Of a stretch of 64,000 nucleotides of DNA, positions 10,322 to 52,536 are shown one piece after another. The stretch comes from a bacterium (GTDB lineage Bacteria > Bacteroidota > Bacteroidia > Bacteroidales > UBA1402). The first letter of the stretch is position 1, and each line of letters opens with the position of its first letter. Under the pieces are notes generated by a model. It did no database searches, was not told the DNA's origin, and saw nothing but the letters and a program-made list of their open reading frames with translations. The position numbers and the translations under genes were made by a program. Where the stretch lies: assembly GCA_963617485.1 (NCBI GenBank), contig CAVEPA010000002.1, positions 21,620-85,619 on the forward strand, given 5' to 3'.

Positions 10322-10359
10322 AGTGGTAATTTTGACTGCGAAAATAGTCATTTTTTTTG

Positions 10360-10367: not shown

Positions 10368-10385
10368 TAGCCTTTAAAAACTATT

Positions 10386-10823
10386 ATGACTGAGGTAAAA
10401 ATAATCAACCGTTCGAAGCATCCGCTTCCGCAATATGCCACGCCACAGTCGGCCGGCATGGACCTGAGAGCCAACCTGACAGAGCCTGTCACGCTTAAAC
10501 CTTTGGAGAGGAAACTGATTCCCACAGGTTTGTTTATAGAACTGCCCGTCGGGTATGAGGCACAGATACGTCCTCGCAGCGGTCTGGCATTGAAGAAGGG
10601 GATAACCGTCCTGAACACACCGGGCACCATCGATGCAGACTACCGTGGCGAAATAGGCATCATTCTTGTCAACTTGTCCAATCAGGACTTCGTTGTGGAA
10701 GACGGCGAACGCATCTGTCAGATGGTAATTGCCCAGCATGCCCAAGCCTCATGGACCGAAGTCGAAGTTTTGGGCGACACCGAGCGTGGCAGCGGCGGGT
10801 TCGGACACACCGGCGCTTGCTAA
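10386..10823 (+). CDS. dut: dUTP diphosphatase
   Basis: dUTPase motifs [32 protein letters not shown] and [11 protein letters not shown]. Confidence 0.95.
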
Positions 10824-10841
10824 GTAATCTGTAAAAATATC

Positions 10842-13350: not shown

Positions 13351-13351
13351 T

Positions 13352-17548: not shown

Positions 17549-17553
17549 ACCCT

Positions 17554-36878: not shown

Positions 36879-37988
36879 CTATCTGCTCCGCTCGATGTTG
36901 TTTCCATCCAGCACTTCGCGAATCTGGGAGATGATGCCCGAGGCTTGCCGTTTTGTTAAGCCCGCATCGGAGGCTACGGCCAGAAAATCGTCTATGTCAG
37001 GACGTTCCTTGCCATTAACAATCGATGCATGGATACCGTTATTTGCATTGCGGCACTCAGTGATGTCGTAGGCGGGCGCTATGCTCCATTTCGATCCGTC
37101 ACAGATGAAGGAGAAATTCTTCGCATGGTCATCGTTGTTACCTATTTCGTAGTTGAAAATCATCCTGCGATACATTTCCTGCGCTTGCGACATATCTTTG
37201 GTCAGATGAGCGGTGAACCTTATCAGTTTCCGATAGTCCATCATCGGGAGACGAATCGATTCTCCAAGCAACGCAGCTGCTGTAGCTACGTGAAGTCTTT
37301 TGCCGTCCAATGTCAGGTCGAATCGTCTAGTACCAAGATATTTTCCGTTGAACAGTTTGCAGTCGGGTATTCTTATGCCGCACATCTTGGCCTTTTGAAG
37401 TATGTCGTACTCGCGCATTCCCATGTCCAGAGGATCGTAATAATGTCTGAATTTGACCAACCACGAGCCGTTTTCGTCCTTCCACAAGCATTTAGGACGA
37501 CATCCTCCGGAATTTCCGCTCATGATGTAGAGGTTTCCGGCACTCGAAAAGTCTTTTTCCGTCAACACAGCCAAGGCATCCTTCTGTATCTGGTCCAAAG
37601 TGGCAGATTCCTGCTTTTCGTCGACAACAACCTGCGGAACATACACCAAAGCCCCCATTCCATTTTCTCCTACCAAAGAAAGCCGCTCTACCGGAGTCAT
37701 CTCTAGGAGTGAAAGTCCATACTTTTGCAGCAACTTATTCAGAAGATAACTACCATATCCATCGGGCATACTATCTTCGAAAATTCCGAAGTTGCCGTAA
37801 AAGCAGTTTGTTTTCGGCACCAAGAGTTCATCGGTTAGGGGCAACTCCAAGGGAGAAATAGAAAATCCTGTTGCCAACCAACGCTGGTTGTACTGGAACA
37901 CGCAACTATGGTTATCAGGAGTCATGGACAGCGTCCCAACTGCCTCGTTGTGATATAATACCGTCAATGATTTTGGCAATCGTATCAT
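36879..37988 (-). CDS. hipA: HipA-family Ser/Thr kinase toxin (type II TA)
   Basis: 369 aa; kinase catalytic loop IGNNDDHAKNFSFI; 4-nt ATGA overlap with the upstream HTH gene. Confidence 0.8.
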   Translation of the reverse strand: MIRLPKSLTVLYHNEAVGTLSMTPDNHSCVFQYNQRWLATGFSISPLELPLTDELLVPKTNCFYGNFGIFEDSMPDGYGSYLLNKLLQKYGLSLLEMTPVERLSLVGENGMGALVYVPQVVVDEKQESATLDQIQKDALAVLTEKDFSSAGNLYIMSGNSGGCRPKCLWKDENGSWLVKFRHYYDPLDMGMREYDILQKAKMCGIRIPDCKLFNGKYLGTRRFDLTLDGKRLHVATAAALLGESIRLPMMDYRKLIRFTAHLTKDMSQAQEMYRRMIFNYEIGNNDDHAKNFSFICDGSKWSIAPAYDITECRNANNGIHASIVNGKERPDIDDFLAVASDAGLTKRQASGIISQIREVLDGNNIERSR

Positions 37989-38302
37989 ATTTTTCTCACT
38001 CCTCGTTTGCGATTGGCGTTCTTTTTAATGGATTCCATTTCTCTGAGCGTACTATATTTGGGCTCGTTGAACATTCTCTCCAACTCTTCGGTATAACCTA
38101 GCGCCATGGCTATTTTCACGAAAGATTCGAGCGAAACCTTCGATGTCAGTTCAAAACGGGCGATGCTTGCCTTAGGCACACCCGTCAACGATTGCAAGTC
38201 TGCTCTGGTCAGACCCTTTTCGAGCCTACGCTTCTTGAGCCGTTCCGACAAGATTTTCATCACCTCTTCTGGTGTGGTCAGCACAAAGTCTGATTCAAAC
38301 AT
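37985..38302 (-). CDS. XRE-family HTH protein (HipB-like antitoxin)
   Basis: HTH region GLTRADLQSLTGVPKASIARFE. ATG 38302 is preferred because a -7 box overlaps the longer track start at 38338. Confidence 0.7.
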   Translation of the reverse strand: MFESDFVLTTPEEVMKILSERLKKRRLEKGLTRADLQSLTGVPKASIARFELTSKVSLESFVKIAMALGYTEELERMFNEPKYSTLREMESIKKNANRKRGVRKI

Positions 38303-38335
38303 AACGACTAAAATTTTATCTCTTATAATCGAAAG

Positions 38336-38343
38336 CAAAGATA
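38336..38343 (-). promoter_or_regulatory. Candidate -7 promoter box (TAtcTTTG) for the hipB-hipA-like operon
   Basis: TAnnTTTG on the minus strand, 33 nt upstream of ATG 38302. Confidence 0.4.
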
Positions 38344-38400
38344 AGAAATAATATTTAAGTCTCTATAAAAAGTAGCGCTGCAAACTTCCGAGTCAGCTCG

Positions 38401-38487
38401 ATGTTGGAAAAGTTGCAGAAAAACCACTATTTCATGTTGGAAAAGTTGCAGAAACATGCTATTTTTGCAATGAAAAAGTTGCAAATA
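38401..38487 (+). repeat. Direct repeats (iterons): 2 perfect 21-nt copies and 1 degenerate copy
   Basis: atgttggaaaagttgcagaaa occurs at 38401-38421 and 38434-38454 (33-nt phasing). A degenerate copy aatgaaaaagttgcaaata is at 38469-38487. The repeats bracket the ATPase -7 box. Confidence 0.85.
38460..38467 (+). promoter_or_regulatory. Candidate -7 promoter box (TAttTTTG) for the AAA ATPase gene
   Basis: TAnnTTTG 21 nt upstream of ATG 38489. Confidence 0.4.
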
Positions 38488-38488
38488 T

Positions 38489-39850
38489 ATGCTTAAACGA
38501 CAGATAGACAACGTAATAGAGTCGCATTTTGCCTCCCATCAAAAAGCCTTGTTGCTTACAGGCGCAAGGCAAGTAGGAAAAACCTATGCCATAAGGGAAT
38601 ATGCACGACGGCATAGCCTTAACCTCGTCGAGTTAAACTTTCTTCTTCAGCCGGAAGCCATCTCCATCATTAAGGGCGCAGGCGATACGAAAGATTTGTT
38701 GCTTAGAATCTCCGCCTCCACCAGCACCAAGCTTGAGCCAGGCAAAACGCTGATTTTCTTTGATGAAATACAAGAATACGCCGATGTTATGACTTGGGTA
38801 AAAGGACTTGTTGACGAGGGCAGTTACAGCTACGCCCTCAGCGGATCTCTTCTCGGCATTGAAATGAGGAATATCCGTTCCTTGCCTGTCGGCTATATGT
38901 CCGAATATCAGGTTTTCCCGCTGGATTTCGAAGAATTTGTCCTAGCCGTCGGCCTGTCCGAAAATGTTATTGACTCCTTGCGAAAAGCTTGGGAAAACAA
39001 ATCTCCCGTGGACGACTTCATCCACCGGAAAATGATGCAACTCTTCCATCTATATTTGGTTATCGGCGGAATGCCTGCCGCGGTTCAAGCTTATGTGGAC
39101 ACCAACAATCTCCAAAACGTTGTCAAAGAACAGCGCGATATTCTCAACTTATACAAACTGGACATCTCCCGTTACGACAAGGATGAGCGCAAGAAGCTAT
39201 ATATCAACGAGGTTTTCGATATCATTCCATCCGAACTCAACGCCAAGAACAAACGTTTCATATTGAAACGCCTCAACGAACACATGAGTTTCAGCCGTCA
39301 CGAAAACGACTTTATCTGGCTTAAGGATGCCGATATGGCTCTGCCTACTTACAATGTTGAAGAACCGGTCTACCCACTGAAACTAAACGAACAAAGAAAT
39401 CTTTTCAAACTGTTCCAAAACGATGTCGGACTGCTGACGTGCCAATATTCTTCGGGAAAGATTCAACTGAAGATTCTCAATGGAGAGGTGGATATCAACT
39501 TTGGAGCGGTATTTGAAAACGCCATCGCCCAAGAGTTCCATGCACATGGTTGGGACCTTTACTATTTCAACAGCAAGAAACAGGGAGAAATAGATTTTCT
39601 GCTGGAAACAGACAATGGAATCATTCCCGTCGAAGTGAAATCCGGAAAAGAATACCAGCGACACAATGCCTTAAACAATCTTATGTCAAACCCAGATTAC
39701 GGTTTCGCCAAAGCCTATGTTCTATGCAATGGAAATCTCCATACAGAGGGCAATATCGAATATCTGCCCGTGTATATGACAATGTTCATCCGCAAATACC
39801 AAGACCTCGGCAATCTGATTTACAAGCTAGATCTTTCTGGATTGGAATAG
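38489..39850 (+). CDS. AAA-family ATPase with a DUF4143-type C-terminal domain
   Basis: Walker A LLTGARQVGKT and Walker B LIFFDEIQE. The C-terminal GEIDFLLETDNGIIPVEVKSGKEY is the nuclease-fold-like signature of DUF4143 ATPases. Confidence 0.8.
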   Translation: MLKRQIDNVIESHFASHQKALLLTGARQVGKTYAIREYARRHSLNLVELNFLLQPEAISIIKGAGDTKDLLLRISASTSTKLEPGKTLIFFDEIQEYADVMTWVKGLVDEGSYSYALSGSLLGIEMRNIRSLPVGYMSEYQVFPLDFEEFVLAVGLSENVIDSLRKAWENKSPVDDFIHRKMMQLFHLYLVIGGMPAAVQAYVDTNNLQNVVKEQRDILNLYKLDISRYDKDERKKLYINEVFDIIPSELNAKNKRFILKRLNEHMSFSRHENDFIWLKDADMALPTYNVEEPVYPLKLNEQRNLFKLFQNDVGLLTCQYSSGKIQLKILNGEVDINFGAVFENAIAQEFHAHGWDLYYFNSKKQGEIDFLLETDNGIIPVEVKSGKEYQRHNALNNLMSNPDYGFAKAYVLCNGNLHTEGNIEYLPVYMTMFIRKYQDLGNLIYKLDLSGLE

Positions 39851-39923: not shown

Positions 39924-39953
39924 GTGGCAGCGACTCGTAAGAGTCGCTGCCAC
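39924..39953. terminator. Strong hairpin between convergent genes, likely a bidirectional terminator
   Basis: Perfect 13-bp stem gtggcagcgactc / gagtcgctgccac with a GTAA loop. On the minus strand it is followed by tatttata. Confidence 0.6.
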
Positions 39954-40009: not shown

Positions 40010-42748
40010 TCATTTCGATGCAATTTTCGAAACAGTGTAGGTGGTTCCGTTCTGGATTACCTCATAGCCGTCGGCGACAAGACTCTTCGTGCATCCGTTT
40101 TGGGCAGGGTTAAAGCCTTCGAATGCGCCGCCATATACATTGATGTATCCGCGTTCATAAGTGCAACTGTTCAAGGGATCATAGTAGCCGTCAACAGAAG
40201 AATAATCATACAAGCAATAATTTGCATATAACTCTTCCAGTTCTTGTGTCTTGTTGGTCAAAATTGCAGCATTGAACGAACCGCCATAAATATTGACAAC
40301 ACCACCGCCGCGCGCCCAGCAAGCGCCAGGGCCATCAGGATCGGAATTAGAACAAGTGAAGACCAGTCCATCGATATTGACAGTACCTCCCCAAGCCATA
40401 ACACAGCATCCGCCATTTAGGGACTTCATTGTAGCATTTTTGATGTAGGAGACACCGCCTGATGCGTAAATGCAGGAATTAGCTCCCTCCATATATACAT
40501 CGTCTACAGTAAGTTTGCCGGAATAGACGTTAAGAAGAGCATTGCCGTCGCCCGTCGTGTTGTTGGCAACGATTTTACCGTTGCCGGTAACAATCAAATC
40601 TCCATTGATTATGGAAATTGCGCGGCACCCGGTACCATCGATGGTCTTGCCGTTAAGGTCAAGAGTAGCAGCATGGCCGCTGTCCAGGGTAACGGTACTT
40701 TTAATACGAATGTCTTCGTTGAGAATGACCTTATTGACTTCAGCATTCGCGAAGGCCTCTTTTAAAGCCGCCTCAGAGGCAACATAAGAAATAACACCGT
40801 CGGCACTTAATACATTGGCCAGCGAGATGCCTTCAACAATAAGAGTACCGTTGGTGTTATCTACAGTGTAAGCGTTGCTGGCGCTTTGGATTTTGCCATT
40901 GCCGCTTCCGTCCTTCAAGGTGAGGCTGGCACCACTTTCGATGGTGATAACATTGCCGCTCTCAGTGCTGAGGGTCTGGCCGTTCAGATCGATGATGGTA
41001 TTCGTTCCACTGGCAATGTTGAAGTTACCGGTGATGCCTGCTGCCAATTTTACTTCGCGGCCGTTTTCGAGTGCATATTCAAGGGTCTTGATATCTTTAA
41101 CCTTGATGAAGGCTTCCAGTTCTTCGCCGCTTTCGCTGGTGGCGGTTTCAGATTCGATTTTAACAACTTCATTGGCCTTCTCGCCGATAATGGCATCTTC
41201 GGCCAGCGAGGCACCGTTCTGCAGCTCGATAACGGGTGCTTTATATTCAACGGTTGTAGTCCCCGTGGTTTCGGGAGCTTTCACTACAATCGAGGAAACC
41301 TTGGCTTGCTCTTTCACCTGTCCTTCATCGCTGGCGGTAGCCTTAACGATGATGGGAGCAGAAGAAGTGGTGGTCATAGAAGTGGTGATGTTGGCTGTGG
41401 GAGCCAAAACGATTTTGGCCTCTGCAGGCACGGTTTCCTTCACTTCCACCTCGGCTACTTCACAAGCGATTTCAACACCACCCTTGGCCACCTCGAGTTT
41501 CCCGGTGATTATGGTGGAGTTGCTCAATACCAGCGTACTATTGTTGGTCTGGGAAGAGACGGTTTCGAAGGTTCCGCCCTCGATATCAACGTGGCTGTTT
41601 TCCAGATTGACAACAAGATTCGAGATGTTGTAGCTACCGGCATTGATGGTTACATTGGCGGGATAGTTTTGGGAAGTTGCGGCATTCTCGTTGTATGCTA
41701 TCGTGATAACGTTCTCACCCTTGCAGTCGCCTTCGATATTCAACAATATATCGTCCTTGGTGTCGGGCAGATTGTAGGTGCCTAAGTAGCCTGCGGGAAT
41801 GGAGAGGCGGTCAACATTGATTGTTTCTGTAAAAGCGGGATCCACAACAATGTTGAAGTCGGCCTGGCTGGTGTAGAGCTTACCGATAATATTGGTGCGG
41901 TAGTTGCCCTGCAAAGGAACGTTGGGCAACGAGATGGTGTTGATGGCTGCGTTGCTGGCATCGTAGATGGTCAGCTTGGCTTCGGTCATGGCCTTAGCAG
42001 CCTTGCCCACCAGCACGTAGTTCATTGATACGTAGCCGTACTCGGTGTTGTTAACCTTGAGTTTTTCGCTCAGAAGCTCGGCGGCCGTGAATGCGGCATC
42101 AACCTCGCCGCTTACCTCGCCAGTGGCCAAATTCAGCGTGTTGGCAAGCTTGGTAAGGGTCAGCGAAGACTTGGAAACGGTTACGCCAAGGGCCGTTGCA
42201 GCTTCAACATCTGCCTTATCAACGCCGAAGTTCAACTGGGCAAAGGGACGATTCAGCGTGACAGGTTCCTTAAGCGAACCCGTGATTGTCTTGTTGGCTA
42301 CATAGGCGTAGAAGGCGTCGCGGCTCTCGTCGTTGGTGGCCGTGGTGTAGTTGTTCACCGTTACGCTCTTGGCGGCAGTATTGAAGGTATAAGGAGAAGT
42401 GAATCCTGCTGCCGGAGCCTTGTAAGCCCAGAATGCGAAACTGTAGGTCTGGCCTGTCACTAGGCGCACCTGGTAGTCGAACGCACCCAATGCATTCCTG
42501 CTGATGGTTTCGTTAGTGACAAGTACGCCAGCGTCATTGTAGACACAGCAGTCCACTTTGTCTACGGTAGTACCATCGGCCACGGTTTTGTCGCCGGCGG
42601 CACGCGTCTGCAAACCGGGCGTGGCTATCGCGAAACTCACGATGGCTTCTTCGCCGTCAACCGGGGGTGTTTCAATCATTTCGTTGGTGCAGGATGCTGC
42701 AAACGCTACTAAAGCTATCGCAGCCAGCGATTTGAAAATCTTTTTCAT
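40010..42748 (-). CDS. Type V pilin-like (fimbrillin/Mfa-like) lipoprotein fused to a ~600-aa beta-helix-like adhesin extension (paralog A, 912 aa)
   Basis: Lipobox signal MKKIFKSLAAIALVAFAASC; ATPGLQTRA candidate maturation site; DAFYAYV...RPFAQLNFGV and NVPLQGNYRTNIIGKLYT pilin-like motifs. These are followed by G/N/T-rich repeats (LNGKTIDGTG..., GNGKIVANN...). Confidence 0.55.
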   Translation of the reverse strand: MKKIFKSLAAIALVAFAASCTNEMIETPPVDGEEAIVSFAIATPGLQTRAAGDKTVADGTTVDKVDCCVYNDAGVLVTNETISRNALGAFDYQVRLVTGQTYSFAFWAYKAPAAGFTSPYTFNTAAKSVTVNNYTTATNDESRDAFYAYVANKTITGSLKEPVTLNRPFAQLNFGVDKADVEAATALGVTVSKSSLTLTKLANTLNLATGEVSGEVDAAFTAAELLSEKLKVNNTEYGYVSMNYVLVGKAAKAMTEAKLTIYDASNAAINTISLPNVPLQGNYRTNIIGKLYTSQADFNIVVDPAFTETINVDRLSIPAGYLGTYNLPDTKDDILLNIEGDCKGENVITIAYNENAATSQNYPANVTINAGSYNISNLVVNLENSHVDIEGGTFETVSSQTNNSTLVLSNSTIITGKLEVAKGGVEIACEVAEVEVKETVPAEAKIVLAPTANITTSMTTTSSAPIIVKATASDEGQVKEQAKVSSIVVKAPETTGTTTVEYKAPVIELQNGASLAEDAIIGEKANEVVKIESETATSESGEELEAFIKVKDIKTLEYALENGREVKLAAGITGNFNIASGTNTIIDLNGQTLSTESGNVITIESGASLTLKDGSGNGKIQSASNAYTVDNTNGTLIVEGISLANVLSADGVISYVASEAALKEAFANAEVNKVILNEDIRIKSTVTLDSGHAATLDLNGKTIDGTGCRAISIINGDLIVTGNGKIVANNTTGDGNALLNVYSGKLTVDDVYMEGANSCIYASGGVSYIKNATMKSLNGGCCVMAWGGTVNIDGLVFTCSNSDPDGPGACWARGGGVVNIYGGSFNAAILTNKTQELEELYANYCLYDYSSVDGYYDPLNSCTYERGYINVYGGAFEGFNPAQNGCTKSLVADGYEVIQNGTTYTVSKIASK
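40806..42373. repeat. Copy 1 of a 1,568-bp direct repeat (inside paralog A)
   Basis: Same sequence as 45725-47292 (offset 4,919 nt). Four pairs of six-frame track ORFs are letter-identical, and every sequence line I compared by eye matched. Confidence 0.9.
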
Positions 42749-42805
42749 AATGGAATTCTCTTATACTACTATTAGGATACTGTGATGGTTCGAAAGGATG
42801 CCGAT

Positions 42806-42859
42806 GTTTTCTTGTCATGGCAAAGTCAAATTGACTTGACTTTGCTCATGACAGAAAAC
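42806..42859 (-). other. 54-nt near-perfect hairpin in the spacer between pilin paralogs B and A
   Basis: Arms gttttcttgtcatggcaaagtcaa (42806-42829) and ttgactttgctcatgacagaaaac (42836-42859) give 23 bp with two 1-nt bulges and a 6-nt loop. There is no T tail on either strand. Confidence 0.8.
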
Positions 42860-42875
42860 ATTTCCAAAGTAGGGC

Positions 42876-43829
42876 CTAGTTTGTAGTAGGATAATCCACA
42901 TTGTCATCCTCCCCTGCGAAAGCAGGAGCCACTTCAACACTGTAGTCGGTCTGGCTGGTGAAGAGATCGCCAAGCACGTTGGTGCGGTAGTTGCCCTGCA
43001 AGGGAACGTTGGGAACATCAATGGTGTTGATTTCCTCATTGTTCTCTTTGTAAAGCGTCAGCTTGGCATCGGCCGTGGCCTTAGCAGCCTTGCCTACCAG
43101 CACGTAGTTCATCGATACGTAGCCGTAGCCAGTTTCGTTAACCGTGAGGTCTTCGTTCAGAAGCGCTGCAGCGGAGAACGTGGCTTCAGCTTCGCCGCTT
43201 ACTGTACCGTCAACCAGGTTGAGCGTAGTGCCAAGATTCTGAATCGTCAGCGCAGACTTGGAAACGGTTATGCCAAGATTCTCGGCGACGGTGATATCAT
43301 CCTTGTTCACACCAAAGTTCAGCTGGGCGAAGGGACGGTGCAGCTTAACTTCCCGATTCAGGGAACCCGTAATCTGCACAGGCTCTACATAGGCGTAGAA
43401 AGCATCGCGGCTCTCGTCGTTGGAAACGGCGTTAGCGTAAGAAACGGTAACGGTCTTGTCAGTAGCACTGAAGGTGTAAGGAGAGGTGGCTCCTTCTGCC
43501 GGAGCCTTGTAAGCCCAGAAGATAAAGCTGTAGGTTTGACCCGTCATCAGGCGCACCTGGAAATTGGTCGAGCCGTTGGTCATATCGATGGTTTTGCTGA
43601 CAGTTTCGTTGGAGATAAGTGCCCCTTCTGAATCGTAAACACAGCATGCCACTTTGTCTACGGTTTTACCATCGGCCACGGCACGGGTCATCAGGCCCGG
43701 AGTGGCTATGCTGAAGTTAACAACGGACTCTCCCTCGTTCACGATAGGGGTTTCAATCATTTCTTTGGAACAAGATGCTGCGAAAACCATTAAGGCAATG
43801 GCAGCGATGGATTTCATAATCTTTTTCAT
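42876..43829 (-). CDS. Type V pilin-like (fimbrillin/Mfa-like) lipoprotein, pilin module only (paralog B, 317 aa)
   Basis: Signal MKKIMKSIAAIALMVFAASC, ATPGLMTRA, DAFYAYV...RPFAQLNFGV, NVPLQGNYRTNVLGDLFT. It is colinear with the N-terminal ~310 aa of A and C. Confidence 0.55.
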   Translation of the reverse strand: MKKIMKSIAAIALMVFAASCSKEMIETPIVNEGESVVNFSIATPGLMTRAVADGKTVDKVACCVYDSEGALISNETVSKTIDMTNGSTNFQVRLMTGQTYSFIFWAYKAPAEGATSPYTFSATDKTVTVSYANAVSNDESRDAFYAYVEPVQITGSLNREVKLHRPFAQLNFGVNKDDITVAENLGITVSKSALTIQNLGTTLNLVDGTVSGEAEATFSAAALLNEDLTVNETGYGYVSMNYVLVGKAAKATADAKLTLYKENNEEINTIDVPNVPLQGNYRTNVLGDLFTSQTDYSVEVAPAFAGEDDNVDYPTTN

Positions 43830-43875
43830 AATGTAATGGGTTTTAATTGGTTATACTTTGTTTATCGGTTTATTC

Positions 43876-46800
43876 TTAGTAGTTGATGGTAGCAGTGCCG
43901 GTGTTGCCAGTCTCGGTGCCGGTCCAACTGTTATAGCGTCCGATGTAGTTCCTGGCATTGAAACTTGCGTTGTCCGTGAGGTTCTTGTAGTTACGGGTCT
44001 TATCGACCGTAATGGTCACTCCGGCAATAGAACAATCCTTAACGGAATCATACTGCGCCGCAATGCCGACAATACCGCCCATATCTCTATAGCCCTTGAT
44101 GCTGACATTCTTCACTGAGCAGCCTGAAATCACATAACCAGGAGCATTTGATTCACCCCAATGACCAAGAATACCACCAACCTTATCGCCTTCGTCGTAT
44201 TCTTTACCATTAGCCAACGGAGCTGTTACAGCAATCAGTTCAGCTTTCTCTACCGCGCAATTTGATATTGAGCAATAGCCCTGGCCGCTGATGCCGCCAA
44301 CATAGTGCGTACTGCGAACCTTGGCATTGTAAACCTTGATGCCTTCAGCCTTTGAAGTGTGAAGATTGCCGACTGCAACGCCACAAGCGCTACCACTGCA
44401 AATGCTTACTTCAGAAGCAATATCGGCATTTTCTACCGTGAAATTCTTCAAAGAGCCGTTAAGGACGCGGCCAAACAGACCCAAATAGGCTTTCTGCTCT
44501 GCGGAATGAACATACAGATTGGAGATGGTATAACCCTTGCCGTCGAAGGTGCCTTGGAAAGATTTGGCATCTTCACCATACAGTCCAATGGGAGCCCAGT
44601 TGAGATTGCAAAGATTGATGTCAGCATTAAGGTAAACAGTCTTGCCCTTGAAAGTGGTAATGCCTTCATTTACCTCCTTGGCAATCCACGCCAGTTCGGA
44701 AGCTTTGGTAATGAGGTAGTTGCCGTTGGCATCGGTAGTGGGTTCGGAAACCGAGCCGTCCCAATCGTATTTATACTGGTTGGCCGACGCATCCAAGAAG
44801 GTACCGCTGTAGATAAATCTGGGGTTGTTCTGCGAATAAATGGCACCATTGAAAACACCACCGGTAACAGTGAGCTTAATCTGGTCGCGTGCAACATCGT
44901 TCTGAACGTCTTTCTCCCAAATAGCATATACGCCGTTGAAAGTACCGCCCGAGATGGTTACATTTATCGGCAAATTGGTGTTGTGCTGCGAAATACCAAT
45001 GGCTGCACCATCTGTGGTAGTTCCACTTCCGTTAGGCTGCACGGTAAAAGGATTGGCTGTGGAGGTAAATTCACCGCTGGAGATATTCATGATACCCGCA
45101 CGGATTTCTATGGCAGTCATTCTGCCCACCACCTTGCTGTTCTTGATATTCCAAACAGCATAGCCTGCAGCGTAGATTCCCACACCTCTTGAATCGAAAT
45201 CGGCACCGTCAAGGTTGAATATCGGGGCATTGGCACCCGTCTGCTGATTAGACCCGTTGATGTAGACACCGTATACATCTTTAATAAAATTCTCATCGTG
45301 AACATACTTGGCGGAGCAGTTTACTACAAGGCCGTAGTTGTTATAAGTTCCATTGTCGTCTTTGGCTACAAAGATACCAGCCCAGCCTTTCAAGGTGATG
45401 CCGTTACCGATAGTAACAACTGTATAATTGGCTACATTCTCGGTGCCACTGCCTCTAAGCATAAGACCGTGGCCATCATCAACGCTTTCCGCTATGATAC
45501 CGGTACCGATGAAATCAACGGTAGCATTGTATATATCAAACGGTGTGTCATTTTTCGTAATTGTTTTGCCGTTCATGTCAATCACTACCTTGCGACCGCC
45601 ATTGATAACCGCCGTTTTTGTAAGGTCGATATCAGCACTAATCACAATCTTGCCGATGTTGGTGTCGGCGATAGCGGCGTTGAGAGCCTTTTCGTCGGCA
45701 ACATAAGAGCGTACACCGTCGGCGCTTAATACATTGGCCAGCGAGATGCCTTCAACAATAAGAGTACCGTTGGTGTTATCTACAGTGTAAGCGTTGCTGG
45801 CGCTTTGGATTTTGCCATTGCCGCTTCCGTCCTTCAAGGTGAGGCTGGCACCACTTTCGATGGTGATAACATTGCCGCTCTCAGTGCTGAGGGTCTGGCC
45901 GTTCAGATCGATGATGGTATTCGTTCCACTGGCAATGTTGAAGTTACCGGTGATGCCTGCTGCCAATTTTACTTCGCGGCCGTTTTCGAGTGCATATTCA
46001 AGGGTCTTGATATCTTTAACCTTGATGAAGGCTTCCAGTTCTTCGCCGCTTTCGCTGGTGGCGGTTTCAGATTCGATTTTAACAACTTCATTGGCCTTCT
46101 CGCCGATAATGGCATCTTCGGCCAGCGAGGCACCGTTCTGCAGCTCGATAACGGGTGCTTTATATTCAACGGTTGTAGTCCCCGTGGTTTCGGGAGCTTT
46201 CACTACAATCGAGGAAACCTTGGCTTGCTCTTTCACCTGTCCTTCATCGCTGGCGGTAGCCTTAACGATGATGGGAGCAGAAGAAGTGGTGGTCATAGAA
46301 GTGGTGATGTTGGCTGTGGGAGCCAAAACGATTTTGGCCTCTGCAGGCACGGTTTCCTTCACTTCCACCTCGGCTACTTCACAAGCGATTTCAACACCAC
46401 CCTTGGCCACCTCGAGTTTCCCGGTGATTATGGTGGAGTTGCTCAATACCAGCGTACTATTGTTGGTCTGGGAAGAGACGGTTTCGAAGGTTCCGCCCTC
46501 GATATCAACGTGGCTGTTTTCCAGATTGACAACAAGATTCGAGATGTTGTAGCTACCGGCATTGATGGTTACATTGGCGGGATAGTTTTGGGAAGTTGCG
46601 GCATTCTCGTTGTATGCTATCGTGATAACGTTCTCACCCTTGCAGTCGCCTTCGATATTCAACAATATATCGTCCTTGGTGTCGGGCAGATTGTAGGTGC
46701 CTAAGTAGCCTGCGGGAATGGAGAGGCGGTCAACATTGATTGTTTCTGTAAAAGCGGGATCCACAACAATGTTGAAGTCGGCCTGGCTGGTGTAGAGCTT

Positions 46801-47646
46801 ACCGATAATATTGGTGCGGTAGTTGCCCTGCAAAGGAACGTTGGGCAACGAGATGGTGTTGATGGCTGCGTTGCTGGCATCGTAGATGGTCAGCTTGGCT
46901 TCGGTCATGGCCTTAGCAGCCTTGCCCACCAGCACGTAGTTCATTGATACGTAGCCGTACTCGGTGTTGTTAACCTTGAGTTTTTCGCTCAGAAGCTCGG
47001 CGGCCGTGAATGCGGCATCAACCTCGCCGCTTACCTCGCCAGTGGCCAAATTCAGCGTGTTGGCAAGCTTGGTAAGGGTCAGCGAAGACTTGGAAACGGT
47101 TACGCCAAGGGCCGTTGCAGCTTCAACATCTGCCTTATCAACGCCGAAGTTCAACTGGGCAAAGGGACGATTCAGCGTGACAGGTTCCTTAAGCGAACCC
47201 GTGATTGTCTTGTTGGCTACATAGGCGTAGAAGGCGTCGCGGCTCTCGTCGTTGGTGGCCGTGGTGTAGTTGTTCACCGTTACGCTCTTGGCAGCCGAGT
47301 CGAGTTCGTAATGATTGCCGTCCTTATCGTAGGCCCAGAAAACAAAACTGTAGGTCTGGCCCGTTACCAGGCGCAGCGAGATGTCGGCCTTGCCGCCGCT
47401 CATGTCGGATGTTTTGCCAACACCCTCGATAAGATTGCCGTCCTTGTCGTAGACATGGCATTGCACCTTGTCTACGGTGTTTCCGTCGGCCACGGCTCGG
47501 GTCATCAGGCCCGGAGTGGCAACCGAGAAGTTCACAACGGCTTCTTCGCCGTCGTAAGATGCGGGATTTTCCAACAGCTCGTTGGTGCAGGATGCTGCAA
47601 ACGCTACTAAAGCTATCGCAGCCAGTGATTTGAAAATCTTTTTCAT
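43876..47646 (-). CDS. Type V pilin-like lipoprotein fused to a ~940-aa beta-helix plus GLUG-like adhesin extension (paralog C, 1256 aa)
   Basis: It has the same signal peptide and pilin motifs as A and shares a 522-aa block with A. The unique C-terminus carries FQGTFDGKGYTISNLYV...YLGLFGRV...VGGISGQG...VGGILGHW...MGGIVGIA, a GLUG-type repeat pattern. Confidence 0.55.
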   Translation of the reverse strand: MKKIFKSLAAIALVAFAASCTNELLENPASYDGEEAVVNFSVATPGLMTRAVADGNTVDKVQCHVYDKDGNLIEGVGKTSDMSGGKADISLRLVTGQTYSFVFWAYDKDGNHYELDSAAKSVTVNNYTTATNDESRDAFYAYVANKTITGSLKEPVTLNRPFAQLNFGVDKADVEAATALGVTVSKSSLTLTKLANTLNLATGEVSGEVDAAFTAAELLSEKLKVNNTEYGYVSMNYVLVGKAAKAMTEAKLTIYDASNAAINTISLPNVPLQGNYRTNIIGKLYTSQADFNIVVDPAFTETINVDRLSIPAGYLGTYNLPDTKDDILLNIEGDCKGENVITIAYNENAATSQNYPANVTINAGSYNISNLVVNLENSHVDIEGGTFETVSSQTNNSTLVLSNSTIITGKLEVAKGGVEIACEVAEVEVKETVPAEAKIVLAPTANITTSMTTTSSAPIIVKATASDEGQVKEQAKVSSIVVKAPETTGTTTVEYKAPVIELQNGASLAEDAIIGEKANEVVKIESETATSESGEELEAFIKVKDIKTLEYALENGREVKLAAGITGNFNIASGTNTIIDLNGQTLSTESGNVITIESGASLTLKDGSGNGKIQSASNAYTVDNTNGTLIVEGISLANVLSADGVRSYVADEKALNAAIADTNIGKIVISADIDLTKTAVINGGRKVVIDMNGKTITKNDTPFDIYNATVDFIGTGIIAESVDDGHGLMLRGSGTENVANYTVVTIGNGITLKGWAGIFVAKDDNGTYNNYGLVVNCSAKYVHDENFIKDVYGVYINGSNQQTGANAPIFNLDGADFDSRGVGIYAAGYAVWNIKNSKVVGRMTAIEIRAGIMNISSGEFTSTANPFTVQPNGSGTTTDGAAIGISQHNTNLPINVTISGGTFNGVYAIWEKDVQNDVARDQIKLTVTGGVFNGAIYSQNNPRFIYSGTFLDASANQYKYDWDGSVSEPTTDANGNYLITKASELAWIAKEVNEGITTFKGKTVYLNADINLCNLNWAPIGLYGEDAKSFQGTFDGKGYTISNLYVHSAEQKAYLGLFGRVLNGSLKNFTVENADIASEVSICSGSACGVAVGNLHTSKAEGIKVYNAKVRSTHYVGGISGQGYCSISNCAVEKAELIAVTAPLANGKEYDEGDKVGGILGHWGESNAPGYVISGCSVKNVSIKGYRDMGGIVGIAAQYDSVKDCSIAGVTITVDKTRNYKNLTDNASFNARNYIGRYNSWTGTETGNTGTATINY
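45725..47292. repeat. Copy 2 of the 1,568-bp direct repeat (inside paralog C)
   Basis: See the 40806-42373 entry. Boundaries were set where the two genes first differ: ggcAcTTAAT vs ggcGcTTAAT at one end, and cttggcG vs cttggcA at the other. Confidence 0.9.
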
Positions 47647-47670
47647 ATTGGAATTGTTTATTAGTGGATA

Positions 47671-48888
47671 TTATAAGTTGATATTGTATTCGCCGTTGAA
47701 TTCTGCGTTGACACCAATGCTGCCTCCCGTACTGAGGGTGAGAAAATCGCCACGCACTGTCGTTATTCTGCTCCTGACAATCGGCACTGTTATGGAGGGT
47801 GTGAGCGAGAGCAGATTGTTGGTTTTCTTGTCGTAAAGGGCCACCTGCACAATGACGCTCGATTCGTGGCCGTTCACCATCACATAGTCGAAGCCCATCA
47901 GCACCTCGTCCATCGAAATCGGGCTGAACTCTGAGTCGAACTGCACGCCGGCGCGTGAATCGATGGGCTTGTTCTTGAACATATCGAACATAAAGGGCAT
48001 AAACGAGGTGTAATAAAAGCGGATGTAGTAGTCGGATGGGTTGAAGCCGGGAGCTTTAGCCGGATTCCAGACATTCGACACATCGCTGCCGGGCAAGAGC
48101 TCGGCCGGTGTTTCTACCGTTACCTTCGTCTCGCCTTCTTTAACCTTATTCATAGCTTCCTTTTCGAGTTTTCTTGCGTTTATCCAGCGGGAATATTCCT
48201 CACTCGAGAGTTTTTCCTTCAATACCTTCATCATCAGACATTCAAGGTCGGTGGCGATAAAGCGGAACTTGGCGAGCGGACGTTCCATATCCAGCGTTAC
48301 CGCGATGGGTTCTTGCTTGCTGCCCACCCGCTGAAGGGACACCTCTGCCGAACCCAAGAATGCGTCTTTATAGTCGGTGTTGGCCGAATGCAGCTCGGGC
48401 AAGGCGATGGCGGCAAAATCGCCGGTTTCATAGTAAAGGTCGTCTGTACTGCCTTTGGCTACATAATCGGCCCAACAGCGTATCTGCCAATCGCCTTCGG
48501 GCAATACCGCCAGCGTGCTGTAATCGAGCGTTGAGAGGTCGTCTTTGGTCAATACCAACGTATAGTCGGGGGCTTCGTTGCGCGAGAAGCTGCCATCGGG
48601 AAGGCGAGGATAGAATTTCACCGTATATCTGAAGGCATGCTCTTTATCGGCCTTGGTTGTCGATTCTGAGGATATATCCGTCTTGGTTTCGTAGTTTACC
48701 GTCAGGTAGGGTGGCAAGTCGGTAGAGAATACGAAATCAAGTTTCAGCACCGCAGGGGTGGACTCGTCGGGCCATTGATGAACGCTGCAGGAAAAAGCGC
48801 CAATAACCACTAACACGCAACCAAGGACCGGCAGCGCTCCCGTAAACGCGACCAGACGAGTCCATATTTTTAATATCATCCGCTTCAT
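47671..48888 (-). CDS. FimB/Mfa2-like type V pilus subunit (anchor/terminator-like), lipoprotein
   Basis: Signal with Cys (...VIGAFSC), DAFLGSAEV...RPLAKFRF core, and C-terminal VPIVRSRITTVRGDFLT resembling the pilin-module end motif. It has a 4-nt overlap with the upstream gene. Confidence 0.45.
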   Translation of the reverse strand: MKRMILKIWTRLVAFTGALPVLGCVLVVIGAFSCSVHQWPDESTPAVLKLDFVFSTDLPPYLTVNYETKTDISSESTTKADKEHAFRYTVKFYPRLPDGSFSRNEAPDYTLVLTKDDLSTLDYSTLAVLPEGDWQIRCWADYVAKGSTDDLYYETGDFAAIALPELHSANTDYKDAFLGSAEVSLQRVGSKQEPIAVTLDMERPLAKFRFIATDLECLMMKVLKEKLSSEEYSRWINARKLEKEAMNKVKEGETKVTVETPAELLPGSDVSNVWNPAKAPGFNPSDYYIRFYYTSFMPFMFDMFKNKPIDSRAGVQFDSEFSPISMDEVLMGFDYVMVNGHESSVIVQVALYDKKTNNLLSLTPSITVPIVRSRITTVRGDFLTLSTGGSIGVNAEFNGEYNINL

Positions 48889-50153
48889 TTCCGAGTCCTC
48901 CTTCCCAAACTGAATTCATAGAAGAAACCTATCGCGAGGTTGTCGAGTCCCATGTAGACTTCTTTTTGCGTATCTACATAAGGGCCGTTCTCCTCGTTCA
49001 CGAAGCGATCGTATTCGAAGTTGTAGGCACCGGCACCGATGACAAATTCCACGCCCAGGCGCGGATAGTCGGGAAAATGGAGCTTGTAGCCCAGGCTCAG
49101 GCCACCGCCAAGCATCGGAGTCTCGCCGGCATGGTCTTGGATGCGGTAATTGCCGTTGGCTGCCAAATTGAAGTAGCATATACTGCCGTGTACTCCTACA
49201 AACAGTCCCTGGGGCCAGGCGAAATTCCACCTAAGCTCGGGCTGCAAGGTTAAAGTCCTGAATTTTATGGTGCTGCTGAAATAGTCGAATGCGCTGAAAT
49301 AGACCGGGACATGCAAGGAGAGCCTGCGCGAGAAGTCAATCTCTACACCAGCGTTCGCAATCAAAATGCCCCAAAGCAAGGCATTGGTTTTGGGAGTCAG
49401 CTTGGGTCGCCAAGCCTCGGGCCAGTTGGCGGCCGGTTCGGTGCGGCGGCCGGCAGCTTCCAAGATATCGGCAGTGGACTGCTTCACGGAGGGCTCCACC
49501 AGAGCTTGCACGTCAAGTTCCGACTTCAGGGAATCCGTTTCATTCACGCTGACAATGGCCTTGAAAGTACGCATGCCCGGGAAAACCTTTTTGGCAAGAG
49601 TATTCCATATCTGGCCGCCGTTCAAGGTTTTGAGCGCATGGAGTTTTTGCTTGTCATTATAAACGGAATCGTTGAGGATGGACATGATGGCCGCCTTTTC
49701 CTGAGCATCGATGGCCATCGACTTTTCTACCATCTCAGGAAGACCGGTCATAGGCGCAATACTGACGAAAGCCGACCCCAGATTCGATATATTAAAATAG
49801 ACAGCATCGAGCCCTGCTGCCGCCAAAGCCTCAATAGCATGCTGAAGTCTTTCGGCACGAAGCTTTTCATTGAACGAAACCGAGCCTTCGGGACATGCCG
49901 ATGCGCTGAAGTAAACTTTCACCTTACCAGCCGTCAGGGTGTCGGCCAAGTGGTTGGCCTGCTCGACAAAACGGGCCACTGTTTCTCCATTGGAATGGTA
50001 AGCTGGCTCATATTTCGATGACCCGAAACGATAATGAATATCTATCGAAGAGCTCGATTGTGCATAAGTCTCGATTCCATACCATCCAACGCACAATATG
50101 CCTATTATCAGCAATGTGCGTAATATGCAAAAGGATGTTCGCGGTTTAGGCAT
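48885..50153 (-). CDS. Outer-membrane protein, DUF3868-like N-terminal half plus DUF3575-like beta-barrel C-terminal half (tentative)
   Basis: ATG 50153 gives a signal peptide (...GIETYAQ); the track start at 50204 is a TTG. The C-terminal half has alternating hydrophobic strands (LLWGILIANAGVEIDFS...LSLHVPVYFSAFDYF...LGYKLHF...IGFFYEFSL). Confidence 0.45.
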   Translation of the reverse strand: MPKPRTSFCILRTLLIIGILCVGWYGIETYAQSSSSIDIHYRFGSSKYEPAYHSNGETVARFVEQANHLADTLTAGKVKVYFSASACPEGSVSFNEKLRAERLQHAIEALAAAGLDAVYFNISNLGSAFVSIAPMTGLPEMVEKSMAIDAQEKAAIMSILNDSVYNDKQKLHALKTLNGGQIWNTLAKKVFPGMRTFKAIVSVNETDSLKSELDVQALVEPSVKQSTADILEAAGRRTEPAANWPEAWRPKLTPKTNALLWGILIANAGVEIDFSRRLSLHVPVYFSAFDYFSSTIKFRTLTLQPELRWNFAWPQGLFVGVHGSICYFNLAANGNYRIQDHAGETPMLGGGLSLGYKLHFPDYPRLGVEFVIGAGAYNFEYDRFVNEENGPYVDTQKEVYMGLDNLAIGFFYEFSLGRRTRK

Positions 50154-50344
50154 AGTGGTTCTCGGTTTAACAATTTGCTTGTTGTGGTAATATTGGGTTC
50201 GCAAATTTCATAACAGGGAGTTACAATTTACCGCAAGTTTTTACTAATAACCTGTTACAAAAGCGTATCATAACCTTAACAATGAGCAGACCAAAAGCCG
50301 TTGAAGAATCAGGGGGAATTATTTCAAAACAGCTTGTAAATATG

Positions 50345-50352
50345 TACCTTTG
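50345..50352 (+). promoter_or_regulatory. Candidate -7 promoter box (TAccTTTG) for the OmpA-family gene
   Basis: TAnnTTTG 21 nt upstream of ATG 50374. Confidence 0.45.
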
Positions 50353-50373
50353 CGGCTTGAAAAAAAGGGCTTT

Positions 50374-50997
50374 ATGCGCAAGCTTGGTCTTCTTATCGCT
50401 ACAGGGTTCGTGTTGCTTGCTTCCTCTTTCGACACGGACGACATTCTGCACCATACGGCAGCCGAATATATCGTGCTTTCGAGTGTGGGCGGCGAAGGAG
50501 CATCGGCACTGGACCAGGCCGTCGGACAAGCTGTGAAAGAGCAGATGAAGCCCTTGGAAACCGCCCTGCGCGAGCTATGGCAAGATATCGCCACCATCCG
50601 TCAACCAGACGAAGGCGTGCTGATGGTCATCCCCGGCGATTTCCTTTTCAAAAGCGGACGCAGCGAACTTAGAGATGCAAGTCTGCCCTATTTGCAGGCA
50701 ACGAAGGAATTGTTGGCGCAATATCCGCAATTCCGCACCTATATACTGGTGCATACCGACGACAATGGTTCGGATTTCATGTCGATGGATTTGTCGGAGC
50801 ATCGGGCGAAGGTCTTGAAAAAGTGTCTGCAGCAAGACACTTCGGTAAAGATTTCCGGCAAGGGCAAAGGCGCACTGGTGCCGGTTATCTCCAACGCTTC
50901 GGACGCTGGCCGGCAGCTGAACCGCCGCGTGGAATTTGCCATTGTGGCCAAAGGAAAGCTGATTAGAGATTTGAAACGGCAAATCAAACAACAATAA
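50374..50997 (+). CDS. OmpA/MotB C-terminal-domain protein
   Basis: ATG 50374 gives the signal MRKLGLLIATGFVLLASSF. OmpA_C pattern FKSGRSELRD...ILVHTDDNGS...NRRVEFAIV. Confidence 0.75.
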   Translation: MRKLGLLIATGFVLLASSFDTDDILHHTAAEYIVLSSVGGEGASALDQAVGQAVKEQMKPLETALRELWQDIATIRQPDEGVLMVIPGDFLFKSGRSELRDASLPYLQATKELLAQYPQFRTYILVHTDDNGSDFMSMDLSEHRAKVLKKCLQQDTSVKISGKGKGALVPVISNASDAGRQLNRRVEFAIVAKGKLIRDLKRQIKQQ

Positions 50998-51012
50998 TAA
51001 AATACAAGCACT

Positions 51013-52536
51013 ATGAACAAGAAAGCCATGCTGATGATTCTCGACGGTTGGGGCATCGGCAAACACGGAAAAGCAGATGTTATCTACAACACGCCCACTC
51101 CTTATTGGGACAGTCTTTTGGCTCAGTATCCTCACTCGCAATTGCAGGCTTCGGGCGAAAACGTAGGTCTGCCCGACGGACAGATGGGCAACTCTGAAGT
51201 AGGCCACCTGAACATCGGCGCCGGCCGCGTGGTTTATCAGGATTTGGTCAAAATTAACATTGCCTGCCGCGACAACAGCATTTTGGAGAATCCGCAGATA
51301 AAGTCGGCCTACAGCTACGCCAAAGAAACGGGCAAGCAGATTCATTTCCTCGGTTTGGTTTCCAACGGCGGTGTGCACAGCTCGCTCGACCATCTGTTCA
51401 AACTTACCGAGATTTCCAAACTTTACGGCATTGAAAAGTCTTACGTTCACTGCTTTATGGACGGCCGCGACACCGACCCGCATAGCGGCGTGGGCTTTAT
51501 CGAGGATTTGGAGAAACATCTGGCCGTGAACGGCGGTGCCATCGCTTCCATTGTGGGACGCTACTACGCCATGGACCGCGACAAACGCTGGGAACGCATC
51601 AAAGAGGCTTACGACCTGCTCGTGAACGGCGTGGGCAAGGCTTCGACCGATATGGTACAGGCTGTGAAGGAATCGTACAACGAGGGTGTTACCGACGAGT
51701 TCATCAAGCCAATCTGCCATGTTGATGCCCAAGGCAAGCCTATTGCCACCATTCAGGAGGGCGACGTGGTTATCTTTATCAACTTCCGCAACGACCGCGC
51801 CAAGGAACTTACCATCGTCCTGACCCAACAGGATATGCCCCAGGCCGGTATGCACACCATTCCCTTGCAGTATTATTGCATGACACCTTATGATGCCACT
51901 TTCAAGGGTCTGCACATTCTTTTCGACAAAGACAACGTATCGAACACGTTGGGCGAAATTGTCGCTGCCAACGGCCTGCGCCAGCTGCGTATAGCCGAAA
52001 CGGAGAAATATGCCCACGTTACTTTCTTCTTCTCGGGCGGCCGTGAAAAGGAATTCGAGAATGAAGACCGCATCCTGATTCCTTCGCCCAAGGTTGCCAC
52101 CTACGACCTGAAACCCGAAATGAGTGTCTACGAAGTGGGCGATGCCTTGAAGCAGGCCATCGAAACCCAAAAATACGACTTCATCGCCGTGAACTATGCC
52201 AATGGCGATATGGTGGGCCACACGGGCGTTTACGAAGCCATCGAAAAGGCCGTCATCGCTGTGGATGCCAACGTGAAGAAAGTGGTGGAAGCTGCCAAGG
52301 CCAACGGCTACGAAGTGATTATCATCGCCGACCACGGCAATGCCGACAACGCCATCAACTCAGACGGTACGCCCAACACGGCCCACTCGCTCAATCCGGT
52401 GCCCTTCGTTTACGTTACCGACAACAAGAACGCCAAGGTGGAAGACGGTATACTGGCCGATGTCGCTCCTTCTATCTGCCACATTCTCGGCATTGCCCAG
52501 CCGGCCGAAATGACGGGTCATTGCCTTATCAAATAA
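51013..52536 (+). CDS. gpmI: 2,3-bisphosphoglycerate-independent phosphoglycerate mutase
   Basis: MILDGWGIG, catalytic-Ser region [23 protein letters not shown]; 507 aa. Confidence 0.95.

Follow-up and report, generated by a model that had tools for sequence, protein, structure and literature searches.

The DNA analyzed here, hereafter the window, is a stretch of 64,000 nucleotides from a gut member of the Bacteroidales (UBA1402; assembly GCA_963617485.1, contig CAVEPA010000002.1, positions 21,620–85,619), and it carries a five-gene locus that is best explained as an operon on the chromosome, belonging to the type V (FimA/Mfa) pilin superfamily and within it to the DUF6562 branch. The locus encodes an outer-membrane protein with a DUF3575 barrel, a putative anchor pilin and three paralogous lipoproteins, two of which continue beyond a pilin module into very long extensions that are predicted to be beta-helices. 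It is a typical member of a large, uncharacterized and structurally distinctive branch of that superfamily. By analogy with known type V pili, the locus probably specifies a short or stalk-less display, in which cleaved pilin modules would be tethered to the lipidated anchor with their beta-helix heads projecting from the cell. Throughout this text, 'adhesin' and 'pilus' denote functions that we infer. The genes, in the order in which they are read, are the following:

48885–50153 (open reading frame to 50204), minus strand: p422 (open reading frame p439), outer-membrane protein with a DUF3575 barrel
47671–48888, minus strand: p405, anchor-type DUF6562 pilin-fold lipoprotein of 405 amino acids
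43876–47646, minus strand: p1256, lipoprotein with a pilin module, predicted beta-helix modules and a GLUG-type domain
42876–43829, minus strand: p317, lipoprotein consisting of the pilin module alone
40010–42748, minus strand: p912, lipoprotein with a pilin module and an extension

An original prediction, made from the sequence alone, had proposed five co-directional minus-strand genes, and all of their open reading frames were confirmed at these coordinates. The motifs on which it had relied, FAASC, ATPGL[QM]TRA, DAFYAYV...RPFAQLNFGV and NVPLQGNYRTN[IV][IL]G (the last near residue 280), were all found, and the three lipoproteins of 1256, 317 and 912 amino acids are paralogs, p317 being 63% identical to residues 1–313 of p912 (E 1e-125) and p912 79% identical to p1256 over ~800 residues (BLASTP). 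The genes for p422 and p405 overlap by 4 nucleotides, and spacers of 24, 46 and 127 nucleotides precede p1256, p317 and p912, respectively. An origin from a mobile element was considered and rejected, as the locus agrees with the remainder of the window in GC (guanine plus cytosine) content (48–52%), is flanked by housekeeping genes (rimP-nusA-infB and gpmI) and is arranged alike in a second strain.

The pilin module and its putative processing site

All three paralogs pass the 25-bit cut-off of the Pfam family DUF6562 (p1256 with 47.5, p912 with 46.3 and p317 with 44.6 bits), and p317 also passes that of Mfa2 (PF08842; 27.2 bits against 21.2). An AlphaFold2 model of p317, built on 40 homologues, reached a predicted local distance difference test score (pLDDT) of 86.4 and a predicted template modeling score (pTM) of 0.82, and its best 27 Foldseek matches in the PDB are all type V pilins (probability 1.0, E 7e-11 to 5e-7). 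They include BDI_3522, BACOVA_04980, 3r4r, BT_1062 (3gf8), Mfa2 (5nfi), the FimA prepilins 6jzk and 6jzj, PG_0181 and Mfa4 (5dhm). The template modeling (TM) scores of these matches are modest (0.34–0.57), to which the two-domain architecture may contribute. For this region p317 is the only protein modeled, and the fold is expected to carry over to the large paralogs because of its identity to the N-terminal part of p912. Taken together, the profile matches and the model support a type V pilin fold in residues ~30–305 of the paralogs. The pilin-like module claimed earlier for residues ~50–310 is in this way upheld, as is the claim that p317 is that module alone, its 317 residues comprising the pilin module and a short C-terminal tail only. 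Sequence searches of the PDB with p1256, a p317 profile, p422 and p405 returned nothing significant (best 3gf8, E 0.4–0.5), and NCBIfam has no family for any of the five proteins.

The lipobox FAASC, with Cys20, is present in p317, p912 and p1256, and a lipobox-like Cys can be recognized in 115 of 123 relatives with a pilin module. The motif ATPGL[QM]TRA in each paralog holds a putative processing site:

47497–47499, minus strand: Arg50 of p1256
43683–43685, minus strand: Arg49 of p317
42602–42604, minus strand: Arg49 of p912

This numbering matches that of Mfa1, which has its lipobox Cys at residue 20 and is cleaved between Arg49 and Ala50 (PMC13655056). Among 110 distinct pilin-module N-termini from other species, 109 have Arg (79) or Lys (30) at the Arg49 position, and the alignment of the 110 continues with Ala, Ser or Thr and then an invariant Asp-Gly. 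In the p317 model, a strand at residues 34–42 is followed by a loop of lower pLDDT that holds Arg49. The earlier suggestion that this Arg stands where type V pilins are matured agrees, at the level of sequence, with both the numbering and the conservation. At its other end p317 has a short C-terminal tail, AGEDDNVDYPTTN, which is homologous to the tails of the anchor-type proteins; module-only proteins such as p317 possess both the Arg/Lys site and a short anchor-related tail, and on these sequence features p317 is a candidate adaptor or stalk subunit. The C-terminal T9SS (type IX secretion system) sorting domain (TIGR04183/PF18962) is absent from p1256, p912 and p317, and the same models detect one elsewhere in the window.

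The candidate anchor

The description of p405 as an Mfa2/FimB-like subunit stood in part: p405 is a strong member of DUF6562 (PF20200; E 7e-69, 233 bits against a gathering cut-off of 25), but its score for the Mfa2 family is 15.2 bits (E 0.017), below the cut-off of 21.2. Because it falls outside the Mfa2 family, its role as an anchor rests on its features, namely the missing Arg/Lys site and the terminal tail. The lipobox of p405, AFSC with Cys34, is followed by the family motif VH(E/Q)WP and by no Arg/Lys processing site, and its conserved tail, GSIGVNAEFNGEYNINL, is the end of the protein. A lipobox-like Cys is recognizable in 43 of 56 anchor-type relatives, and none of these 43 has the Arg/Lys motif; in nearly all relatives the tail G-I-G-I-x-P-x-F-D-G-E-Y-N-I-x-I lies within a few residues of the C-terminus. 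Proteins of the p405 type are homologous to the pilin module from the lipobox to the C-terminus (hhalign probability 98.8%, E 9.7e-17). This distribution of Arg/Lys sites and tails is the one to be expected if a cleaved strand acceptor faced an uncleaved, lipid-anchored strand donor.

Like the anchor pilins Mfa2 and FimB, p405 keeps a lipobox, is without a processing site and has a conserved C-terminal strand, and the fold of its relatives matches Mfa2 (5nfi) by structure. It differs from them in its Pfam Mfa2 score below the cut-off, in a motif of its own, C-x-V-H-E-W-P, and in an insertion of ~60 amino acids. The motif is nearly invariant straight after the lipidated Cys in the anchor-type DUF6562 proteins (L001–L076 and p405), and the insertion, seen relative to the pilin module, is partly helical in p405 (residues ~215–275).

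The extended proteins also keep a trace of the tail. After ...VDPAF they have an internal segment, TETINVDRL, that is homologous to the terminal tail of the anchors and aligns with that of module-only pilins, and they are therefore not simply pilins lacking a donor strand. If this segment served as a donor strand, the extended proteins might polymerize with one another into a fibre with beta-helix side arms, and some operons do have two to five extended genes while lacking a short pilin. We regard this fibre as highly improbable, since the model of the p1256 extension confidently assigns the segment to a strand of the domain that follows (residues 305–310, pLDDT ~91), and since in published stalk and anchor pilins it is the C-terminal domain that holds the donor strand, polymerization having been tested with an Mfa1 deleted at its C-terminus. 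Tip subunits of type V pili, unlike anchor and stalk subunits, have no C-terminal donor strand.

The extensions as predicted beta-helix heads

The borders of the modules in p1256 were drawn from high-scoring segment pairs with homologues. The parts of the two large proteins are as follows:

p1256 residues 1–20: signal peptide and lipobox
p1256 residues 21–305 (46732–47586, minus strand): pilin module
p1256 residues 306–430: proximal module, beta-rich
p1256 residues 430–645: middle segment, beta-rich, common to the closest relatives only
p1256 residues 645–958 (44773–45714, minus strand): conserved module, predicted beta-helix, 50–55% identity in more than 100 proteins
p1256 residues 960–1256 (43879–44769, minus strand): GLUG-type domain, in some relatives directly after the pilin module
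p912 residues 21–312 (41813–42688, minus strand): pilin module
p912 residues 313–912 (40013–41812, minus strand): extension

An AlphaFold2 model of p1256 residues 296–1256 (pLDDT 85.7) has short strands every 6–8 residues over most of its length, and Foldseek matches it to right-handed beta-helices, among them PL6 lyases, the P22 and HK620 tailspikes, pertactin, AlgE4, Ag43, HxuA, PfbA and polygalacturonases. In a viral structure library the matches were to beta-helices and tailspikes, five of them at E<=1e-3, and the GLUG part matched phage models named 'putative IgA1 protease'. The C-terminal domain of p1256 has a strong local match to the GLUG protein BACOVA_03286 of B. ovatus (3n6z; probability 1.0, TMt 0.54, root-mean-square deviation 5.1 over 335 columns, 17% identity), which was crystallized as a construct without a pilin fusion and whose deposited name, 'putative immunoglobulin A1 protease', is only putative. 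The C-terminal module of p912 (residues ~655–912) is its own; it has a pectate-lyase-like start (Pectate_lyase_5 below cut-off, residues 655–717) and homologues in three related loci (L011, L015 and L013). Homologues of ~535 amino acids carry precomputed PF13229 Beta_helix or PF20585 assignments beside PF20200.

At the same time, the matches to individual beta-helices in the PDB are weak (E 6e-3 to 0.5, all above 1e-3). Pectate_lyase_5 (PF20585) reaches 20.8–21.7 bits in p1256 and 16.3–19.0 bits in p912 against a cut-off of 24.3, and GLUG (PF07581), found in two stretches of p1256, reaches 17.9 bits against 20.5. Right-handed beta-helices, together with the GLUG domain, are thus a prediction for the extensions that the model supports well and does not prove. 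The earlier reading of these regions as repeats like a right-handed beta-helix found support as to the beta-helix, for which the model and Foldseek speak. Simple tandem repeats were rejected as an interpretation: the extensions consist of several different modules, each of which can be found without the others in homologues, in addition to GLUG. One relative (P0007) has the GLUG module directly after the pilin module.

The same structural matches raise the question of whether the heads are displayed enzymes, such as polysaccharide lyases, hydrolases or a GLUG-associated protease, and not adhesins. The best whole-model matches are indeed PL6 alginate lyases, tailspike depolymerases, the AlgE4 epimerase and polygalacturonases, 3n6z was deposited under the name of a protease, and one homologue has a precomputed PF05342 assignment. 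We nevertheless consider enzymatic heads quite unlikely, because matches so weak, with low TM-scores, reflect a generic solenoid; no catalytic Pfam or NCBIfam family was found at any threshold; the sole Pfam hint of a beta-helix is a 'pectate lyase-like adhesive domain'; and relatives swap their heads for leucine-rich repeats (LRR) or other binding modules.

Family size and conservation of the operon

A family profile was built from module-only sequences, and the counts given for it refer to representatives of 50%-identity clusters. There are 7,207 pilin-module representatives at E<=1e-3, and 4,017 at E<=1e-30. In the best 150 representatives the module is always N-terminal and the median length is 783 amino acids; 139 exceed 500 amino acids and three have 340 or fewer. 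At least 567 relatives come from species-representative genomes, nearly all of them metagenome-assembled genomes of Bacteroidales, and relatives span Muribaculaceae, Alistipes/Rikenellaceae, Prevotellaceae, Bacteroidaceae, Paludibacteraceae and Barnesiella; the module is thereby present in most families of gut Bacteroidales. Family members are named only 'hypothetical protein' in the sources examined. Their heads include beta-helix, GLUG and BspA-type LRR modules, and many have no Pfam match; a relative with BspA-type LRR (PF13306, E 1e-24) lies at 10001–13780 of locus L080. The idea that the window holds a possibly undescribed class of adhesin was right in that the family is uncharacterized, but this locus is no oddity, the extended form being the dominant architecture with thousands of members.

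Gene order was compared in 77 non-redundant related loci of Bacteroidales. The succession of a DUF3575 barrel, an anchor-type DUF6562 protein and one to three pilin-module genes, with the pilin extended as in the window, recurs in 41 of them, in Muribaculaceae, Alistipes, Prevotellaceae, Bacteroidaceae and Paludibacteraceae. Nine others have an anchor and then a pilin, seven have an extended pilin gene with a visible upstream region and no adjacent anchor, and 20 are uninformative, their upstream region being cut off; the anchor gene is immediately upstream in about 50 of the 57 loci in which that region can be seen. Two loci from Prevotellaceae (L024 and L033) have five consecutive pilin-module genes after one anchor. 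A module-only gene (<=340 amino acids) is present in 11 of the 41 full-order loci, and a single pilin-module gene in 21. Since only 11 of 41 have a module-only gene, the conserved core consists of the barrel, the anchor and one extended pilin, with the stalk optional, and it is for this reason that the structure is called short or stalk-less here. As most related operons are without a stalk-like short pilin, 'pilus' may mean only an anchor and a head. It is above all in this stalk-less tendency that the family departs from the Fim and Mfa paradigm.

The DUF3575 outer-membrane protein

The open reading frame of p422 opens at TTG 50204, and the gene is taken as 48885–50153 because ATG 50153 (M18) precedes the signal peptide and gives the length of the homologues, 420–422 amino acids. 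The protein is composed of a signal peptide, an uncharacterized N-terminal domain of ~230 amino acids and a C-terminal DUF3575 beta-barrel (PF12099; E 2.3e-25, 89.4 bits against a gathering cut-off of 21.1, residues 272–431). It had been called a DUF3868/DUF3575-like outer-membrane protein, of which the DUF3575 half is firm, whereas DUF3868 was found neither at E<=0.1 in the whole protein nor at E<=10 in residues 1–275; these residues, searched alone, match no Pfam family at E<=10.

Its gene opens the cassette in 41 related loci, and the DUF3575 barrel is a constant, unexplained outer-membrane partner. No function for DUF3575 was found in the literature. In B. thetaiotaomicron, an Mfa1-like gene has DUF3575 and DUF3868 genes in its vicinity, and in a list for P. 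gingivalis the UniProt accession of one DUF3575 protein is two away from that of FimB, which hints that DUF3575 genes are tied to fimbrial loci in these two species. In P. gingivalis, too, a type V pilus cluster begins with the gene of an outer-membrane protein (PgmA/FimX). PgmA, encoded upstream of fimA, is dispensable for FimA polymerization (PMC3436787), and the barrel may likewise have no part in assembly.

Probable recombination between the two large genes

The genes for p912 and p1256 share a long exact direct repeat:

40806–42373, within p912: copy 1, 1568 nucleotides, exact
45725–47292, within p1256: copy 2, identical to copy 1, offset by 4919 nucleotides

The repeat runs from the middle of the pilin module to the end of the shared extension, so that residues 122–652 of p912 equal residues 115–645 of p1256, and part of the resemblance between the two proteins is owed to it and not to ordinary divergence. 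A second assembly (GCA_963620385.1; L081) has the same five genes at 99.68% identity over 21.2 kb, and its own repeat copies (11594–13192 and 16513–18111) differ at 6 of 1599 positions (99.6% identical). Differences between the strains lie at mirrored positions in both copies, which fits gene conversion (concerted evolution) or a collapse of the repeat in each assembly. A third variant, P0244, combines N-termini of the p1256 and p912 types in a mosaic. If the two copies of the repeat recombined with each other, p317 would be lost and a chimeric gene would result. Within the repeat, a 33-nucleotide hypervariable patch (46010–46042 and 41091–41123) has 16 differing alignment positions between strains, some of them gaps; it encodes an acidic/Ser/Thr linker, around residues 535–546 of p1256, which directly precedes the first helix-capped beta-helix module.

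Proposed mechanism and its alternatives

The proposed display can be described in four steps, of which the first is visible at the sequence level and the other three are drawn by analogy with FimA and Mfa1. First, the four pilin-fold proteins would be exported, lipidated at the lipobox Cys and moved to the cell surface. Second, a surface Arg/Lys-specific protease, the pilin-maturing enzyme being gingipain or clostripain in other Bacteroidales, would cut p1256, p912 and p317 after Arg49 or Arg50, in the loop past the first beta-strand, so removing the lipidated strand and opening a groove in the pilin module. Third, p405, which is without a cleavage site, would stay lipid-anchored, and its C-terminal strand (...EFNGEYNINL) would fill the groove of a cleaved subunit, either directly or via p317, the latter route being possible because p317 has a cleavable N-terminus and a similar C-terminal tail. 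Fourth, the beta-helix/GLUG rods of p1256 and p912 would extend outward from the cell and bind ligands, glycans being the most likely. The two large genes would meanwhile swap sequence by recombination, and heads would be exchanged onto a constant carrier module.

Several observations weigh against this display. The score of p405 for Mfa2, and those of the extensions for beta-helix and GLUG families, stay below their thresholds; the extended proteins keep the internal tail-like segment; the barrel may be a bystander; and in the seven loci noted above an extended pilin gene has no adjacent anchor. No Arg/Lys-specific cysteine protease (C25 or C11) was found with Pfam among the 20 other genes of the 64-kb window. 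Cleavage, strand exchange, surface exposure and binding are themselves inferred, from sequence features and by analogy.

Some of these points would suit a different arrangement, in which the extended proteins are independent surface lipoproteins that use the pilin fold as a stalk or spacer, are tethered by their own lipid or shed at the Arg, and neither exchange strands with p405 nor form a fimbria. For many pilin-fold lipoproteins of Bacteroidales the deposited description says no more than 'putative cell adhesion' or 'polysaccharide binding', and the missing stalk-like subunit in most related operons, the seven loci without an adjacent anchor and the lack of a protease gene nearby are all in keeping with such lipoproteins. 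We judge them unlikely, because the Arg/Lys site is nearly universal in extended and module-only proteins (109/110) and missing from the co-encoded anchor paralog (0/43), as strand exchange predicts, because the anchor gene is so regularly the immediate upstream neighbor, and because the anchor tail is conserved at the extreme C-terminus. The tethered, strand-exchanged display remains the reading that we prefer.

Relation to known systems

Type V tip pilins with a further domain for ligand binding at the C-terminus are textbook knowledge, and Mfa5 has been reported to depend on the T9SS. The accessory and tip pilins of this type (Mfa3–5 and FimC–E of P. gingivalis, and BovFim1C) resemble the paralogs of the window in being lipoprotein precursors with a double beta-sandwich and an Arg/Lys site, in typically having the additional ligand-binding domain in the tip subunit, and in sharing an operon with the anchor. 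They differ in several respects. The head in the window is made of beta-helix modules of 600–950 amino acids, with or without GLUG, as opposed to a vWA domain (Mfa5) or a small lectin-like domain; the window proteins have no T9SS sorting domain; by sequence they belong to DUF6562 and not to the Mfa or FimA families; and the gene order opens with the barrel and the anchor, not with a stalk gene.

A closer parallel in architecture is offered by the tip adhesins of Bacteroides that are diversified by diversity-generating retroelements (DGR), namely BfrT, BthT and BunT (bioRxiv 10.1101/2024.11.15.621889), which likewise join a pilin N-terminus to a C-terminal binding head, are modular, sometimes with a connecting third domain, and are encoded downstream of anchor and stalk genes. 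Their heads are retroelement-diversified C-type lectins, whereas those described here are beta-helix and GLUG modules, with no DGR seen, and vary through recombination between paralogs. Since these tips and Mfa5 both fuse a pilin to a head, the principle of a pilin with a binding head is already known.

Outside the type V pili, right-handed beta-helix rods project from the cell in the pertactin and Ag43 autotransporters, in HxuA and in PfbA of S. pneumoniae, all of which are among the Foldseek matches, and the sub-threshold PF20585 match links the window proteins to Gram-positive proteins with a 'pectate lyase-like adhesive domain'. Those adhesins reach the surface by type V secretion or a sortase route, in contrast to the lipoprotein pilin module found here, and show no significant sequence similarity to it. 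No type V pilin or pilus with a beta-helix, and no mention of DUF6562, was found in the literature searched, in line with the earlier remark that a described pilin-beta-helix fusion was not known, and the architecture is not that of a well-characterized family.

Other features of the window

Two RNA hairpins are associated with the operon:

39924–39953, minus strand: perfect hairpin of 13 bp, 57 nucleotides past the p912 stop codon and followed by UAUUUAU
42805–42860, minus strand: imperfect hairpin of ~24 bp within the 127-nucleotide spacer between p317 and p912

The former is likely the terminator of the operon. The latter has a minimum free energy of -37.6 kcal/mol as RNA, compared with -19.0 for shuffled sequences (z -6.6), occurs once in the window and has no T-run after it; it may act within the operon on the processing or stability of the mRNA, or as an attenuator. 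A check for phase variation and promoters upstream of the first gene found no inverted repeat in 49900–51100, and the Bacteroides TAnnTTTG -7 box is absent from the 267 nucleotides at 50154–50420. A sigma-70-type scan found 17 sites against 11 expected, a kind of scan that is not meaningful in this phylum. An OmpA-like gene (50350–50997) is divergent from the first gene of the operon.

Between the operon and rimP-nusA-infB, the stretch 36879–39850 has a lower GC content (44–47%) and is probably accessory DNA; it carries a HipA-like kinase with its helix-turn-helix partner (36879–38338) and an AAA_14/DUF4143 ATPase (38489–39850). At the window edge, the 3' part of a plus-strand gene (2–1318) encodes a sorting domain of the T9SS type A kind (TIGR04183; 27.5 bits, the cut-off being 23). 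Ahead of it is a stretch with a GDSGG motif that weakly matches trypsin-like peptidases, and it follows that the organism has a T9SS and a secreted serine protease. The gene at 1478–3205 (plus strand) encodes a 575-amino-acid lipoprotein (LSSCGS) with TPR repeats and a weak OmpA-like stretch, and a 355-amino-acid open reading frame at 60362–61429 (minus strand) has no Pfam match.

Significance

Among the adhesive organelles known in the Bacteroidales, type V pili are the principal ones, yet little is known of what they bind or of how they are assembled at the outer membrane. The locus described here clearly exemplifies a very large branch that is unstudied, in which the pilin module carries long beta-helix heads, usually with an anchor and no stalk. 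A bolder generalization, which we offer tentatively and with more doubt than conviction, is that gut Bacteroidales have in the DUF6562 cassette a major adhesin platform and a type V system of a distinct, stalk-less form, in which the anchor would capture, by protease-triggered strand exchange, a single universal carrier pilin module with interchangeable giant heads (beta-helix, GLUG or LRR), and in which the DUF3575 barrel would be a dedicated outer-membrane assembly or docking factor that has been missing from the type V pathway so far. Should the model be false, the family would still consist of abundant surface lipoproteins of unknown function. If it is true, the locus would provide a simple two- or three-protein system for protease-mediated strand exchange, the DUF3575 protein would be a candidate assembly partner, and the family would amount to a catalogue of swappable heads, probably setting the binding specificity of these bacteria in the gut.

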